Shown here: positions 4,846 through 62,017 of the stretch, piece after piece
Layout of the letters: each line of letters begins with the position of its first letter
Numbering within the stretch: the stretch's first letter is position 1
Source: Escherichia coli
GTDB lineage: Bacteria > Pseudomonadota > Gammaproteobacteria > Enterobacterales > Enterobacteriaceae
Assembly: GCF_003334815.1 (NCBI RefSeq)
Contig: NZ_QOWO01000009.1
DNA: 64,000 nt
Direction: 5' to 3' (one strand)
The notes under the pieces: generated by a model
Databases searched by the model: none
What the model was told of the DNA's origin: nothing
What the model saw: only the letters and a program-made list of their open reading frames with translations
Position numbers and translations under genes: made by a program

Positions 4846-5610
4846 CTAATTCTTTCGTTGCTCCAGACGACGCAGAGAACGCTCACGGCGGCTCTCTTCA
4901 CGACTTCTGTCGAGCAAAATTTCTTCGATAAAGGCCAGATGGCGATGCGATGCTTCGCGCGCTTCTTCCGGCTTACCGGCCATAATCGCTTCAAATATGC
5001 GGGTGCGGTGACTACTCACCAGCGGCAGCATCTCGCGACGCGAATAGAGCAATTCGAAGTTCTGGCGGACATTCTGGGCCAACATCGGCTCCATACACCT
5101 TAGCAGATGAAGCAGAACTACATTGTGGGCCGCTTCGGTGACGGCAATCTGATACTGGAGTACGGCGTTTGATTCCGCGTCCAGATCGCCAGACTGCTGC
5201 GCCAGCTCTATGGCGTGGTGGAGTTCACGGATGCGTTCCTTGTCTTCATCGGTACTACGCAGCGCGGCGTAATAAGCGGCGATACCTTCCAGGGCGTGTC
5301 GTGTTTCGAGCAAGTCATACTGTGACTCAGGATGGTCGGAGAGCAGCTCCACCAGCGGATCGCTGAAGCTTTGCCATAGGCTGCTCTGGACAAAAGTGCC
5401 GCCACCCTGGCGACGAAGCAACAAGCCCTTCGCTTCGAGACGTTGAATCGCCTCACGCAAGGAGGGACGGGAGACGTCAAACTGTTTTGCCAGTTCGCGT
5501 TCCGGTGGGAGTTTTTCGCCCGGGCGGAGAGTGCCTTCGAGGATCAAAAACTCCAGTTGCTGCTCAATCACATCGGAGAGTTTTGGTTGGCGGATTTTGC
5601 TGTAGGCCAT
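4846..5610 (-). CDS. pdhR: Pyruvate dehydrogenase complex repressor, GntR family (254 aa)
   Basis: ORF track frame; canonical start [18 protein letters not shown] is 11 codons inside the longest ORF; HTH GntR-type N-terminus. Confidence 0.93.
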
Positions 5611-10602: not shown

Positions 10603-11988
10603 ATGAATATTCCACAGCTCACTGCCCTGTGTCTGCGTTATCATGGAGTCTTGCTGGATGCCAGCGAAGAGGTGGTTCATGTTGCGGTAGTCGATGCACC
10701 TTCGCATGAGCTACTGGACGCATTGCATTTCGCTACCACCAAACGTATTGAGATCACCTGCTGGACGCGCCAACAAATGGAAGGTCACGCCAGTCGCACA
10801 CAACAGACATTGCCCGTAGCTGTTCAGGAGAAGCATCAGCCCAAAGCAGAGTTGCTAACTCGAACGTTACAATCTGCGCTGGAACAACGCGCGTCTGATA
10901 TTCATATCGAACCAGCGGACAATGCCTACCGCATCCGCTTGCGTATCGACGGCGTATTGCATCCTTTACCGGATGTTTCACCGGATGCCGGAGTCGCATT
11001 AACCGCCAGATTAAAAGTGCTGGGAAACCTGGATATTGCGGAACATCGCCTGCCGCAGGACGGGCAATTCACTGTCGAACTGGCAGGAAACGCCGTCTCA
11101 TTTCGTATTGCGACCTTACCATGTCGGGGTGGTGAAAAGGTGGTATTAAGGTTGTTACAGCAGGTGGGTCAGGCACTGGATGTCAACACGCTTGGAATGC
11201 AGCCGTTACAACTGGCGGACTTTGCTCATGCCTTGCAACAACCACAGGGACTGGTGCTGGTAACTGGCCCTACCGGCAGCGGCAAAACGGTCACGCTTTA
11301 TAGTGCCCTGCAAAAGCTGAATACCGCTGACATTAATATTTGTAGCGTCGAAGATCCAGTTGAGATCCCCATAGCCGGACTAAACCAGACGCAAATCCAT
11401 CCGCGTGCCGGACTCACCTTTCAGGGCGTTTTGCGTGCGTTATTGCGCCAGGATCCTGACGTCATCATGATCGGAGAGATCCGCGATGGCGAAACAGCAG
11501 AGATCGCTATTAAAGCGGCGCAAACTGGTCACCTGGTGTTGTCTACCCTACACACTAATTCCACCTGCGAAACGCTGGTACGTTTACAGCAAATGGGGGT
11601 CGCCCGCTGGATGCTATCATCGGCGCTTACGCTGGTAATAGCCCAGCGTCTGGTACGCAAACTTTGCCCACATTGTCGCCGGCAGCAAGGGGAGCCCATC
11701 CACATTCCAGACAATGTATGGCCATCGCCGCTGCCCCACTGGCAGGCACCCGGTTGTGTACATTGCTACCACGGTTTTTATGGTCGTACGGCCTTATTTG
11801 AAGTTCTGCCCATAACGCCGGTCATTCGTCAGCTTATTTCCGCTAATACCGACGTTGAATCGCTGGAAACGCACGCACGACAGGCGGGTATGCGTACGCT
11901 TTTTGAAAACGGCTGCCTGGCCGTAGAGCAAGGCTTAACCACCTTTGAAGAGTTAATCCGCGTACTGGGGATGCCGCATGGCGAGTAA
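10603..11988 (+). CDS. hofB: Type IV pilus assembly ATPase, GspE/PilB family (461 aa)
   Basis: Walker A GPTGSGKT, C-terminal CxxC zinc motif; directly downstream of ppdD. Confidence 0.93.
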   Translation: MNIPQLTALCLRYHGVLLDASEEVVHVAVVDAPSHELLDALHFATTKRIEITCWTRQQMEGHASRTQQTLPVAVQEKHQPKAELLTRTLQSALEQRASDIHIEPADNAYRIRLRIDGVLHPLPDVSPDAGVALTARLKVLGNLDIAEHRLPQDGQFTVELAGNAVSFRIATLPCRGGEKVVLRLLQQVGQALDVNTLGMQPLQLADFAHALQQPQGLVLVTGPTGSGKTVTLYSALQKLNTADINICSVEDPVEIPIAGLNQTQIHPRAGLTFQGVLRALLRQDPDVIMIGEIRDGETAEIAIKAAQTGHLVLSTLHTNSTCETLVRLQQMGVARWMLSSALTLVIAQRLVRKLCPHCRRQQGEPIHIPDNVWPSPLPHWQAPGCVHCYHGFYGRTALFEVLPITPVIRQLISANTDVESLETHARQAGMRTLFENGCLAVEQGLTTFEELIRVLGMPHGE

Positions 11989-13180
11989 GCAACTCTGGCG
12001 CTGGCATGGCATAACCGGCGACGGCAATGCGCAAGATGGGATGCTATGGGCAGAGAGCCGTACTTTACTGCTTATGGCACTACAGCAACAGATGGTTACC
12101 CCACTAAGCCTGAAGCGAATCGCCATCAATTCTGCGCAGTGGCGAGGAGATAAAAGCGCGGAAGTCATTCATCAACTGGCGACGCTACTCAAAGCAGGGT
12201 TAACGCTTTCTGAAGGGCTGGCTCTGCTGGCGGAACAGCATCCCAGTAAGCAATGGCAAGCGTTGCTGCAATCGCTGGCGCACGATCTCGAACAGGGCAT
12301 TGCTTTTTCCAATGCCTTATTACCCTGGTCAGAGGTATTTCCGCCGCTCTATCAGGCGATGATCCGCACGGGTGAACTGACCGGTAAGCTGGATGAATGC
12401 TGCTTTGAACTGGCGCGTCAGCAAAAAGCCCAGCGTCAGTTGACCGACAAAGTGAAATCAGCGTTACGTTATCCCATCATCATTTTAGCGATGGCAATCA
12501 TGGTGGTTGTGGCAATGCTGCATTTTGTTCTGCCGGAGTTTGCCGCTATCTATAAGACCTTCAACACCCCACTACCGGCACTAACGCAGGGGATCATGAC
12601 GCTGGCAGACTTTAGTGGCGAATGGAGCTGGCTGCTGGTGTTGTTCGGCTTTCTGCTGGCGATAGCCAATAAGTTGCTGATGCGCCGACCGACCTGGCTT
12701 ATAGTGCGGCAGAAATTGCTGTTACGCATCCCGATTATGGGTTCACTGATGCGGGGACAAAAACTCACGCAGATCTTTACGATTCTGGCGCTGACACAAA
12801 GTGCAGGCATTACTTTTTTACAGGGCGTAGAGAGCGTCAGAGAAACAATGCGCTGCCCGTACTGGGTGCAACTTCTGACACAAATCCAGCACGATATCAG
12901 TAACGGTCAACCCATCTGGCTGGCGCTAAAAAATACCGGTGAGTTTAGCCCGCTCTGTTTGCAATTAGTGAGAACAGGAGAGGCATCCGGCTCTCTGGAT
13001 CTCATGTTAGACAACCTCGCCCATCATCATCGGGAAAACACAATGGCGCTGGCGGATAACCTCGCAGCCTTACTGGAACCGGCGTTGCTGATCATAACGG
13101 GAGGAATTATTGGTACGCTGGTGGTGGCAATGTATCTGCCAATTTTCCATTTAGGCGATGCGATGAGTGGGATGGGATAA
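11978..13180 (+). CDS. hofC: Type IV pilus inner-membrane platform protein, GspF/PilC family (400 aa)
   Basis: ORF track 400 aa, overlaps hofB end by 11 bp; polytopic membrane protein. Confidence 0.92.
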   Translation: MASKQLWRWHGITGDGNAQDGMLWAESRTLLLMALQQQMVTPLSLKRIAINSAQWRGDKSAEVIHQLATLLKAGLTLSEGLALLAEQHPSKQWQALLQSLAHDLEQGIAFSNALLPWSEVFPPLYQAMIRTGELTGKLDECCFELARQQKAQRQLTDKVKSALRYPIIILAMAIMVVVAMLHFVLPEFAAIYKTFNTPLPALTQGIMTLADFSGEWSWLLVLFGFLLAIANKLLMRRPTWLIVRQKLLLRIPIMGSLMRGQKLTQIFTILALTQSAGITFLQGVESVRETMRCPYWVQLLTQIQHDISNGQPIWLALKNTGEFSPLCLQLVRTGEASGSLDLMLDNLAHHHRENTMALADNLAALLEPALLIITGGIIGTLVVAMYLPIFHLGDAMSGMG

Positions 13181-16060: not shown

Positions 16061-16268
<208 letters not shown>

Positions 16269-57339: not shown

Positions 57340-59354
<2,015 letters not shown>

Positions 59355-59364
59355 GGACACGATA

Positions 59365-60867
59365 ATGACGATTTTTGATAATTATGAAGTGTGGTTTGTC
59401 ATTGGCAGCCAGCATCTGTATGGCCCGGAAACCCTGCGTCAGGTCACCCAACATGCCGAGCACGTCGTTAATGCGCTGAATACGGAAGCGAAACTGCCCT
59501 GCAAACTGGTGTTGAAACCGCTGGGCACCACGCCGGATGAAATCACCGCTATTTGCCGCGACGCGAATTACGACGATCGTTGCGCTGGTCTGGTGGTGTG
59601 GCTGCACACCTTCTCCCCGGCCAAAATGTGGATCAACGGCCTGACCATGCTCAACAAACCGTTGCTGCAATTCCACACCCAGTTCAACGCGGCGCTGCCG
59701 TGGGACAGTATCGATATGGACTTTATGAACCTGAACCAGACTGCACATGGCGGTCGCGAGTTCGGCTTCATTGGCGCGCGTATGCGTCAGCAACATGCCG
59801 TGGTTACCGGTCACTGGCAGGATAAACAAGCCCATGAGCGTATCGGCTCCTGGATGCGTCAGGCGGTCTCTAAACAGGATACCCGTCATCTGAAAGTCTG
59901 CCGATTTGGCGATAACATGCGTGAAGTGGCGGTCACCGATGGCGATAAAGTTGCCGCACAGATCAAGTTCGGTTTCTCCGTCAATACCTGGGCGGTTGGC
60001 GATCTGGTGCAGGTGGTGAACTCCATCAGCGACGGCGATGTTAACGCGCTGGTCGATGAGTACGAAAGCTGCTACACCATGACGCCTGCCACACAAATCC
60101 ACGGCAAAAAACGACAGAACGTGCTGGAAGCGGCGCGTATTGAGCTGGGGATGAAGCGTTTCCTGGAACAAGGTGGCTTCCACGCGTTCACCACCACCTT
60201 TGAAGATTTGCACGGTCTGAAACAGCTTCCTGGTCTGGCCGTACAGCGTCTGATGCAGCAGGGTTACGGCTTTGCGGGCGAAGGCGACTGGAAAACTGCC
60301 GCCCTGCTTCGCATCATGAAGGTGATGTCAACCGGTCTGCAGGGCGGCACCTCCTTTATGGAGGACTACACCTATCACTTCGAGAAAGGTAATGACCTGG
60401 TGCTCGGCTCCCATATGCTGGAAGTCTGCCCGTCGATCGCCGCAGAAGAGAAACCGATCCTCGACGTTCAGCATCTCGGTATTGGTGGTAAGGACGATCC
60501 TGCCCGCCTGATCTTCAATACCCAAACCGGCCCAGCGATTGTCGCCAGCTTGATTGATCTCGGCGATCGTTACCGTCTACTGGTTAACTGCATCGACACG
60601 GTGAAAACACCGCACTCCCTGCCGAAACTGCCGGTGGCGAATGCGCTGTGGAAAGCGCAACCGGATCTGCCAACTGCTTCCGAAGCGTGGATCCTCGCTG
60701 GTGGCGCGCACCATACCGTCTTCAGCCATGCACTGAACCTCAACGATATGCGCCAATTCGCCGAGATGCACGACATTGAAATCACGGTGATTGATAACGA
60801 CACACGCCTGCCAGCGTTTAAAGACGCGCTGCGCTGGAACGAAGTGTATTACGGGTTTCGTCGCTAA
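59365..60867 (+). CDS. araA: L-arabinose isomerase (500 aa)
   Basis: Canonical start [20 protein letters not shown] 8 codons inside longest ORF. Confidence 0.97.
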
Positions 60868-60870
60868 GTA

Positions 60871-61312
60871 GCCGCATCCGGTATGTAACGCCTGATGCGA
60901 CGCTGACGCGTCTTATCTGGCCTACACGCTGCGATTTTGTAGGCCGGATAAGCAAAGCGCATCCGGCATTCAACGCCTGATGCGACGCTGGCGCGTCTTA
61001 TCAGGCCTACGCGCTGCGATTTTGTAGGCCGGATAAGCAAAGCGCATCCGGCATTCAACGCCTGATGCGACGCTGGCGCGTCTTATCAGGCCTACGCGCT
61101 GCGATTTTGTAGGCCGGATAAGCAAAGCGCATCCGGCATTCAACGCCTGATGCGACGCTGGCGCGTCTTATCAGGCCTACGCGCTGCGATTTTGTAGGCC
61201 GGATAAGCAAAGCGCATCCGGCATTCAACGCCTGATGCGACGCTGGCGCGTCTTATCAGGCCTACACGCTGCGATTTTGTAGGCCGGATAAGCAAAGCGC
61301 ATCCGGCACGAA
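60871..61312. repeat. Tandem REP/BIME array: about 5 copies of an 85-bp unit, each unit containing two inverted REP palindromes
   Basis: cctgatgcga recurs at 60891, 60976, 61061, 61146, 61231 (exact 85-bp period); the three middle units appear identical. Confidence 0.9.
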
Positions 61313-61321
61313 GGAGTCAAC

Positions 61322-62017
61322 ATGTTAGAAGATCTCAAACGCCAGGTATTAGAAGCCAACCTGGCGCTGCCAAAACACAACCTGGTCACGCTCACATGGG
61401 GCAACGTCAGCGCCGTTGATCGCGAGCGCGGCGTCTTTGTGATCAAACCTTCCGGCGTCGATTACAGCGTCATGACCGCTGACGATATGGTCGTGGTTAG
61501 CATCGAAACCGGTGAAGTGGTTGAAGGTACGAAAAAGCCCTCCTCCGACACGCCAACTCACCGGCTGCTCTATCAGGCATTCCCCTCCATTGGCGGCATT
61601 GTGCATACGCACTCGCGCCACGCCACCATCTGGGCGCAGGCGGGTCAGTCGATTCCAGCAACCGGCACCACCCACGCCGACTATTTCTACGGCACCATTC
61701 CCTGCACCCGCAAAATGACCGACGCAGAAATCAACGGCGAATATGAGTGGGAAACCGGTAACGTCATCGTAGAAACCTTTGAAAAACAGGGTATCGATGC
61801 AGCGCAAATGCCCGGCGTTCTGGTCCATTCCCACGGCCCGTTTGCATGGGGCAAAAATGCCGAAGATGCGGTGCATAACGCCATCGTGCTGGAAGAGGTC
61901 GCTTATATGGGGATATTCTGCCGTCAGTTAGCGCCGCAGTTACCGGATATGCAGCAAACGCTGCTGGATAAACACTATCTGCGTAAGCATGGCGCGAAGG
62001 CATATTACGGGCAGTAA
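61322..62017 (+). CDS. araD: L-ribulose-5-phosphate 4-epimerase (231 aa)
   Basis: ORF track 231 aa [35 protein letters not shown]; class II aldolase fold. Confidence 0.97.

Follow-up and report, generated by a model that had tools for sequence, protein, structure and literature searches.

The window, a 64,000-nucleotide stretch of Escherichia coli DNA, contains the arabinose genes araB, araA, and araD (Table 1). The last two share an operon and are separated by a spacer that is occupied by a tandem array of REP sequences. This array is extragenic, starting after the stop codon of araA and ending before the ribosome-binding site of araD, and the Shine-Dalgarno sequence of araD is the same whatever the number of units in the array. 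A promoter and terminator scan of the araA-araD gap returned neither a sigma-70-like promoter nor an intrinsic terminator; any termination of transcription there would be REP-type or Rho-dependent. On the minus strand, overlapping open reading frames with TTG starts, 51 to 73 aa in length, recur every 85 bp across the array (60818-61446). We dismissed a coding role for these frames, which arise from the periodicity of a sequence that lacks stop codons.

Table 1. Features of the araBAD segment of the window, with positions in window coordinates
Feature	Position	Strand	Basis or remark
araB	57654-59354	+	ORF list, RefSeq annotation of matching sequence
araA (L-arabinose isomerase), 5' neighbor of the array	59365-60867	+	ORF list; RefSeq annotation, identical Stbl4 sequence
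araA stop codon TAA	60865-60867	+	
araA-araD intergenic spacer, 454 bp (MG1655: 284 bp)	60868-61321	+	
GTAG, then a truncated inverted Y REP reduced to its 3' arm (GTAGCCGCATCCGG), adjoining the araA stop	60868-60881	+	Read from sequence
Unit A, 6 bases unlike B	60873-60957	+	Unit alignment; also in MG1655
Three B units, 100% identical	60958-61042, 61043-61127, 61128-61212	+	MG1655 holds one
Unit C, 1 base unlike B (A for G, unit position 54)	61213-61297	+	Also in MG1655
Partial sixth unit CGCATCCGGCA, finishing the last inverted Y REP	61298-61308	+	
Five direct Z2-type REPs	60890-60925, 60975-61010, 61060-61095, 61145-61180, 61230-61265	+	
Five inverted Y-type REPs	60939-60968, 61024-61053, 61109-61138, 61194-61223, 61279-61308	+	
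Four Y+Z2 pairs matching Rfam RF02564 naRNA4	60942-61007, 61027-61092, 61112-61177, 61197-61262	+	araBAD mRNA sense strand
araD Shine-Dalgarno AAGGAG, 2 nt past the final REP	61311-61316	+	Read from sequence
araD (L-ribulose-5-phosphate 4-epimerase), ATG at 61322, 3' neighbor of the array in the operon shared with araA	61322-62017	+	ORF list, RefSeq annotation

The original prediction had described the gap as 454 bp long and made up of about five tandem 85-bp units, each a pair of inverted REP palindromes, and both the length and the composition were borne out. Tandem Repeats Finder reported an array at 60873-61308 with a period of 85, 5.1 copies, 98% matches, no indels, and a score of 823, and a separate repeat search placed the units in the identical 85-bp register. 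Read in this register, the order of units is A, B, B, B, C, followed by an 11-nt partial unit. Five Z2 REPs alternate with five inverted Y REPs across linkers of 13 nt after each Z2 and 6 nt after each Y; the naming of the two REP types is partly based on the Bachellier/Gilson consensus sequences. A degenerate Z2 pattern matched the window six times against 0.00 matches expected from shuffled sequences, so the REP pattern is not a product of chance. The truncated Y arm at the upstream edge is predicted to form a weak alternative hairpin (60873-60899, z = -2.3) by pairing with the 5' arm of the Z2 that comes first.

These features identify the spacer element as the known BIME-2 of the araBAD operon, an array of alternating Z2 and inverted Y REPs. 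The BIME-2 class is defined by short linkers and by the lack of a long L linker with an IHF site (PMC3333891). In the ara array we found alternation of Y and Z2, short linkers, tandem conserved copies, and an extragenic site, and the IHF consensus WATCAANNNNTTR had zero matches in 60868-61321. BIME-1 (RIB/RIP elements), a single Y-L-Z1 arrangement with an IHF site, shares with the ara array the REP palindromes in inverted pairs but is single-copy and has a long linker that carries the IHF site. The ara array is instead multi-copy, of the Z2 type, with linkers of 13 nt and 6 nt, and without the IHF consensus, and we therefore ruled out BIME-1. The array is a textbook BIME-2, its locus already serves as an experimental model, and it is not a new element. 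Elsewhere in the window, the yacG-mutT spacer has an IHF consensus (TATCAATGAGTTA, 16168-16180) 10 nt from a single minus-strand REP (16190-16225); unlike the ara array, this pair has by its sequence the look of a BIME-1/RIP-type element.

The resemblance extends to a structured RNA family. Four Y+Z2 pairs each matched the naRNA4 model over its full length (positions 1 to 77) with 60.2 bits, barely above the gathering score of 59.5, whereas the minus strand scored 41.7. In the alignment, Y forms the first hairpin and Z2 the second; the RF02564 model was derived from one unit of REP325, which is described as Y + Z2. REP325, the BIME-2 between yjdM and yjdN, likewise consists of tandem Y + Z2 hairpin units within an operon. 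The ara units differ from those of REP325 in their shorter Y loop and shorter Y-Z2 linker, 66 nt being aligned to the 77-position model. naRNA4 is described as a discrete HU-binding small RNA; the likeness of the ara units to it is one of sequence and structure model. A second array that matches naRNA4 is the iscR-trmJ BIME-2, in which tandem Y/Z2 pairs and identical interior units are again found and which also varies by whole units among assemblies; unlike the ara array, it lies at another locus outside the window, has a 91-bp period, and is on the opposite strand. As RNA, each Z2 of the ara array is predicted to form a hairpin of -21.4 kcal/mol and each Y one of -14.3 kcal/mol, and the predicted fold of the whole spacer reaches -231 kcal/mol (z = -7.2 versus shuffles).

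The closest relative of the array is the araD-araA BIME-2 of MG1655 and W3110 (Sutormin et al. 2019 coordinates 66566-66813; Ton-Hoang et al. 2012 substrates B315/B316), which occupies the same locus between the same flanks and contains the same units A, B, and C. The window is identical to it base for base except for two added exact B units. The gap in MG1655 had been given as 284 bp in the original prediction, from which two extra units and no other length difference were expected in the window. This figure was correct: NZ_CP032667.1 and NC_000913.3 both have a 284-bp gap with the unit order A, B, C (araD 65855-66550 and araA 66835-68337 in the latter), which excludes a 454-bp spacer in MG1655. 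The window exceeds MG1655 by exactly 170 bp, and its A, B, B, B, C thus contains two B units more than A, B, C. A piecewise alignment of positions 1-64000 with MG1655 contained no indel outside the array, the sole substitutions being those at 5119 and 34127, and this upheld the expectation that the array is the sole length difference. The first substitution is a synonymous change of pdhR codon 164 from GTG to GTA, an allele that occurred in 0 of 5,426 complete genomes. The second gives murE codon 137 as ACC (Thr) where K-12 has ATC (Ile), and the Thr allele is common among natural E. coli. The murE allele led us to consider that the window came from a natural relative of K-12, a possibility that we rejected: over a 25-kb stretch the top matches were MG1655-type K-12 records with 100.0% identity as printed and equal bit scores, the single difference from NZ_CP032667.1 was the one at murE, and no natural strain among the matches listed outscored K-12.

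Copy number at this locus varies among strains. We measured the gap in 96 records, besides the top hit, that were drawn as two systematic samples from 5,426 complete genomes. Four lengths were found: 284 bp (n = 36), 168 bp (n = 28), 199 bp (n = 21), and 114 bp (n = 11). On direct reading, 284 bp corresponds to three units, 199 bp to two, and 114 bp to one, while the 168-bp allele holds one unit and an unrelated 54-bp palindromic insert. Arrays of at least four units were present in 0 of the 96 sampled genomes; across the 5,426 genomes the number of arrays this long is a lower bound, as the three-unit query missed the four-unit array of XL1-Blue CP081007, probably because at most 40 pieces were listed per record. 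[quoted passage not shown] The insert of the 168-bp allele (about 29% of the sampled genomes, for example strain OkiPb01700) is rich in G/C and begins TTGTTTTCCCCCTCGCCCCTTTGGGGAGAGGGCCGGGGTGAGGGG. We take this 54-bp palindrome to resemble the "box C" repeat. Whether real or not, the difference between three and five units is an ordinary variation in copy number within a repeat known to vary.

Arrays longer than that of MG1655 were found in a small set of records. A four-unit array of the K-12 type (A, B, B, C) is present in GM4792, in the chicken isolate JX21CE35, in FACU 2024, and in one XL1-Blue record. The identical five-unit allele occurred, among the matches listed, in only 3 of the 5,426 genomes: TOP10 CP080620, XL10-Gold CP081008, and Stbl4 CP081009. 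These carriers share an accession batch with XL1-Blue CP081007, BL21(DE3) CP081489, BL21-RIPL CP083273, and Rosetta2 CP083274. All six batch assemblies examined at araA-araD exceed MG1655 by one to two units. XL1-Blue from this batch has four units as against three in an independent XL1-Blue assembly (CP132550), in NEB 5-alpha, and in MG1655, and both BL21 records of the batch have four as against three in the reference BL21(DE3) (NC_012971). In the batch BL21 records the array is moreover homogenized to A', C, C, C, in place of the A', B', C of the reference.

The same inflation is seen at iscR-trmJ, where seven of seven batch records contain four 91-bp units and where MG1655 and the independent XL1-Blue contain three. 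The array of XL1-Blue CP081007 lies at positions 11725-12091 of the segment NZ_CP081007.1 1020000-1050000, and the two XL1-Blue assemblies are identical over 30 kb around iscR-trmJ save for one unit. Two E. coli lineages would thus have gained units at two loci in the hands of one submitter only, a pattern that a shared pipeline explains far better than biology does. Sequence comparison therefore suggests that the unit gains of the batch are probably an artifact of the assembly pipeline.

Two further observations concern individual records of this batch. The TOP10 record (NZ_CP080620.1) retains the araCBAD-leu region in full and carries the DH1/DH5alpha-family cra allele, whereas in genuine DH10B the stretch from rapA to cra is deleted; the label "TOP10" therefore mismatches the sequence. 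In the XL1-Blue record (NZ_CP081007.1), the isc-hca region lies at about 1.03 Mb, some 0.38 Mb from ara, where synteny with MG1655 predicts yjdM. This position implies that the chromosome was inverted or otherwise rearranged on a large scale, or else that it was misassembled.

The two extra units of the window could be of the same origin, that is, a miscount of identical repeats by an assembly pipeline, or they could reflect a change that occurred in the cell. From the sequence comparisons we lean slightly toward the miscount, to which we give a little better than an even chance, leaving a real addition of two units at a little less than even. The confinement of the identical five-unit allele to the suspect batch, among the matches listed, argues for a miscount, as does the inflation of that batch at araA-araD and iscR-trmJ relative to MG1655 and the independent XL1-Blue and at araA-araD relative to the independent BL21(DE3). 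Other observations point away from it. The window is not a batch record, and its connection to the pipeline is one that we infer. The cra substitution (39131) by which the DH1/DH5alpha/JM109/XL1-Blue family is recognized is missing from it, and its pdhR substitution is absent from the 5,426 genomes. The 64 kb contain no indel relative to MG1655 outside the array, so the assembly of the window is otherwise accurate, and long reads would easily span a 454-bp array. Four-unit alleles exist outside the batch in GM4792, JX21CE35, and FACU 2024, and natural strains carry one to three units, which means that the locus does change in vivo.

If the five units are real, they might have arisen recently in a K-12 sub-line by ordinary repeat instability, either replication slippage or unequal exchange of sister chromatids at the 85-bp direct repeats, with the middle unit added twice or two units added in one go. 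We regard this origin as possible but clearly less probable than a miscount. The 100% identity of the three B units is what a recent duplication predicts; exact copies of interior units are, however, also typical of a repeat miscount, so this identity does not discriminate between the two. Also in favor of slippage or exchange are the natural polymorphism (114, 168, 199, and 284 bp in the 96 genomes), the four-unit K-12-type alleles in three records from other submitters, and the window itself, whose K-12 sub-lineage is not that of the suspect batch and whose sequence shows no indel elsewhere. Set against these is the result that no independent five-unit genome was present, among the matches listed, in the 5,426, the sole other carriers coming from a batch with systematic inflation at two loci.

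The araD-A locus has also been studied as a substrate for a transposase. Partial BIMEs from araD-A of MG1655 were cleaved in vitro by TnpA-REP and recombined into products with additional REPs; the substrates were single-stranded oligonucleotides, and models of tandem amplification were proposed in the same work (Ton-Hoang et al. 2012, PMC3333891). The five units might therefore be real and have been added by TnpA-REP/RAYT cleaving at iREP plus linker sites, through strand transfer or a rolling-type mechanism that could deliver more than one identical unit per event. The ability of the K-12 enzyme to cleave and recombine araD-A BIME oligonucleotides in vitro (PMC3333891) is consistent with this route, but this support for amplification is in vitro rather than in vivo, circular BIME intermediates were not found in a mobilome study, plasmid-borne REP arrays proved stable (bioRxiv 10.64898/2026.03.23.713779), and no feature of the sequence separates a transposase route from slippage. 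We consider addition by the transposase improbable. The broader proposal that the extra units record a recent single-step amplification of the BIME-2 in vivo in a K-12 laboratory line, possibly by TnpA-REP, is in our judgment also unlikely, if marginally less so.

Published work on this and other BIME-2 elements bears on what the array would do, the gyrase and TnpA-REP data having been obtained with the three-unit allele of MG1655/W3110. Topo-Seq placed three gyrase cleavage sites in the araD-araA BIME-2 (66566-66813) with ciprofloxacin in the presence or absence of rifampicin (Sutormin et al. 2019, PMC6379681 supplement), and Espeli & Boccard 1997, as recorded in that supplement, had mapped two gyrase cuts there. 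Gyrase cuts Y REPs far more often than Z2 (Sutormin et al. 2019, PMC6379681). The original prediction that such arrays can bind IHF and gyrase thus stood for gyrase and failed for IHF, whose binding is a property of BIME-1 and whose consensus is missing from the gap. For REP325, expression of the downstream gene yjdN was about 8-fold lower, partly through Rho, while the message of the upstream gene yjdM was stabilized and a ladder of truncated transcripts was seen (bioRxiv 10.64898/2026.03.23.713779). The same study found moderate affinity for HU and detected no effect on the nucleoid, and the role of naRNA4 in the nucleoid is now disputed (bioRxiv 10.64898/2026.03.23.713779). According to a 15-nt rule attributed to Liang, Rudd & Deutscher 2015, a REP hairpin that starts no more than 15 nt past a stop codon lowers translation of the upstream gene. 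In the window, the first complete REP (a Z2) begins at 60890, 22 nt beyond the araA stop, and only the truncated Y arm is nearer.

At the DNA level, the araD-A BIME-2 would be expected to serve as a gyrase cleavage site in vivo and its single strands to be cut and recombined by TnpA-REP in vitro, as published for MG1655/W3110. At the RNA level, by analogy with other BIME-2 elements and chiefly REP325, its stable hairpins should partly terminate transcription ahead of araD and should shield the upstream araBA message from 3' exonucleases. By the same analogy, we infer that extra units would mean stronger limitation of araD, more protection of araBA, and more gyrase sites.

Such effects raise the prospect that the expansion is real and was selected, additional REP hairpins usefully altering the AraA:AraD ratio or local supercoiling. 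The attenuation of a downstream gene and stabilization of an upstream one by REP325 would fit this idea by analogy, as would the cutting of the araD-araA BIME-2 by gyrase. No sign of selection is seen, however: the five-unit allele is absent from the 96 genomes sampled, natural and laboratory strains alike, and, among the matches listed, from all independent K-12 records. Less AraD relative to AraB is expected to raise the level of toxic L-ribulose-5-phosphate, as in araD mutants, and this expected build-up opposes a benefit. We hold selection to be the least credible origin of the extra units and very improbable.

The biological weight of the extra units is small, because variation in the number of BIME-2 units is known and araD-A is already a model substrate. 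Should the allele be real, it would be a handy strain marker and would supply a natural isogenic pair, three units against five, in which the dose of REPs could be related to the attenuation of araD, the stability of araBA mRNA, and how many gyrase sites there are. A more general consequence concerns databases. At two BIME-2 loci, one RefSeq batch of laboratory strains carries surplus units; any such length difference therefore needs a check against reads before it is interpreted. Tandem REP counts in some "complete" assemblies are unreliable, and reading them at face value is unsafe.

One other tandem repeat in the window deserves mention. A 303-bp repeat of 2.7 copies with 80% matches lies inside aceF (1172-1986). 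The repeat is ordinary and agrees with the presence of three lipoyl domains in the E2 subunit.
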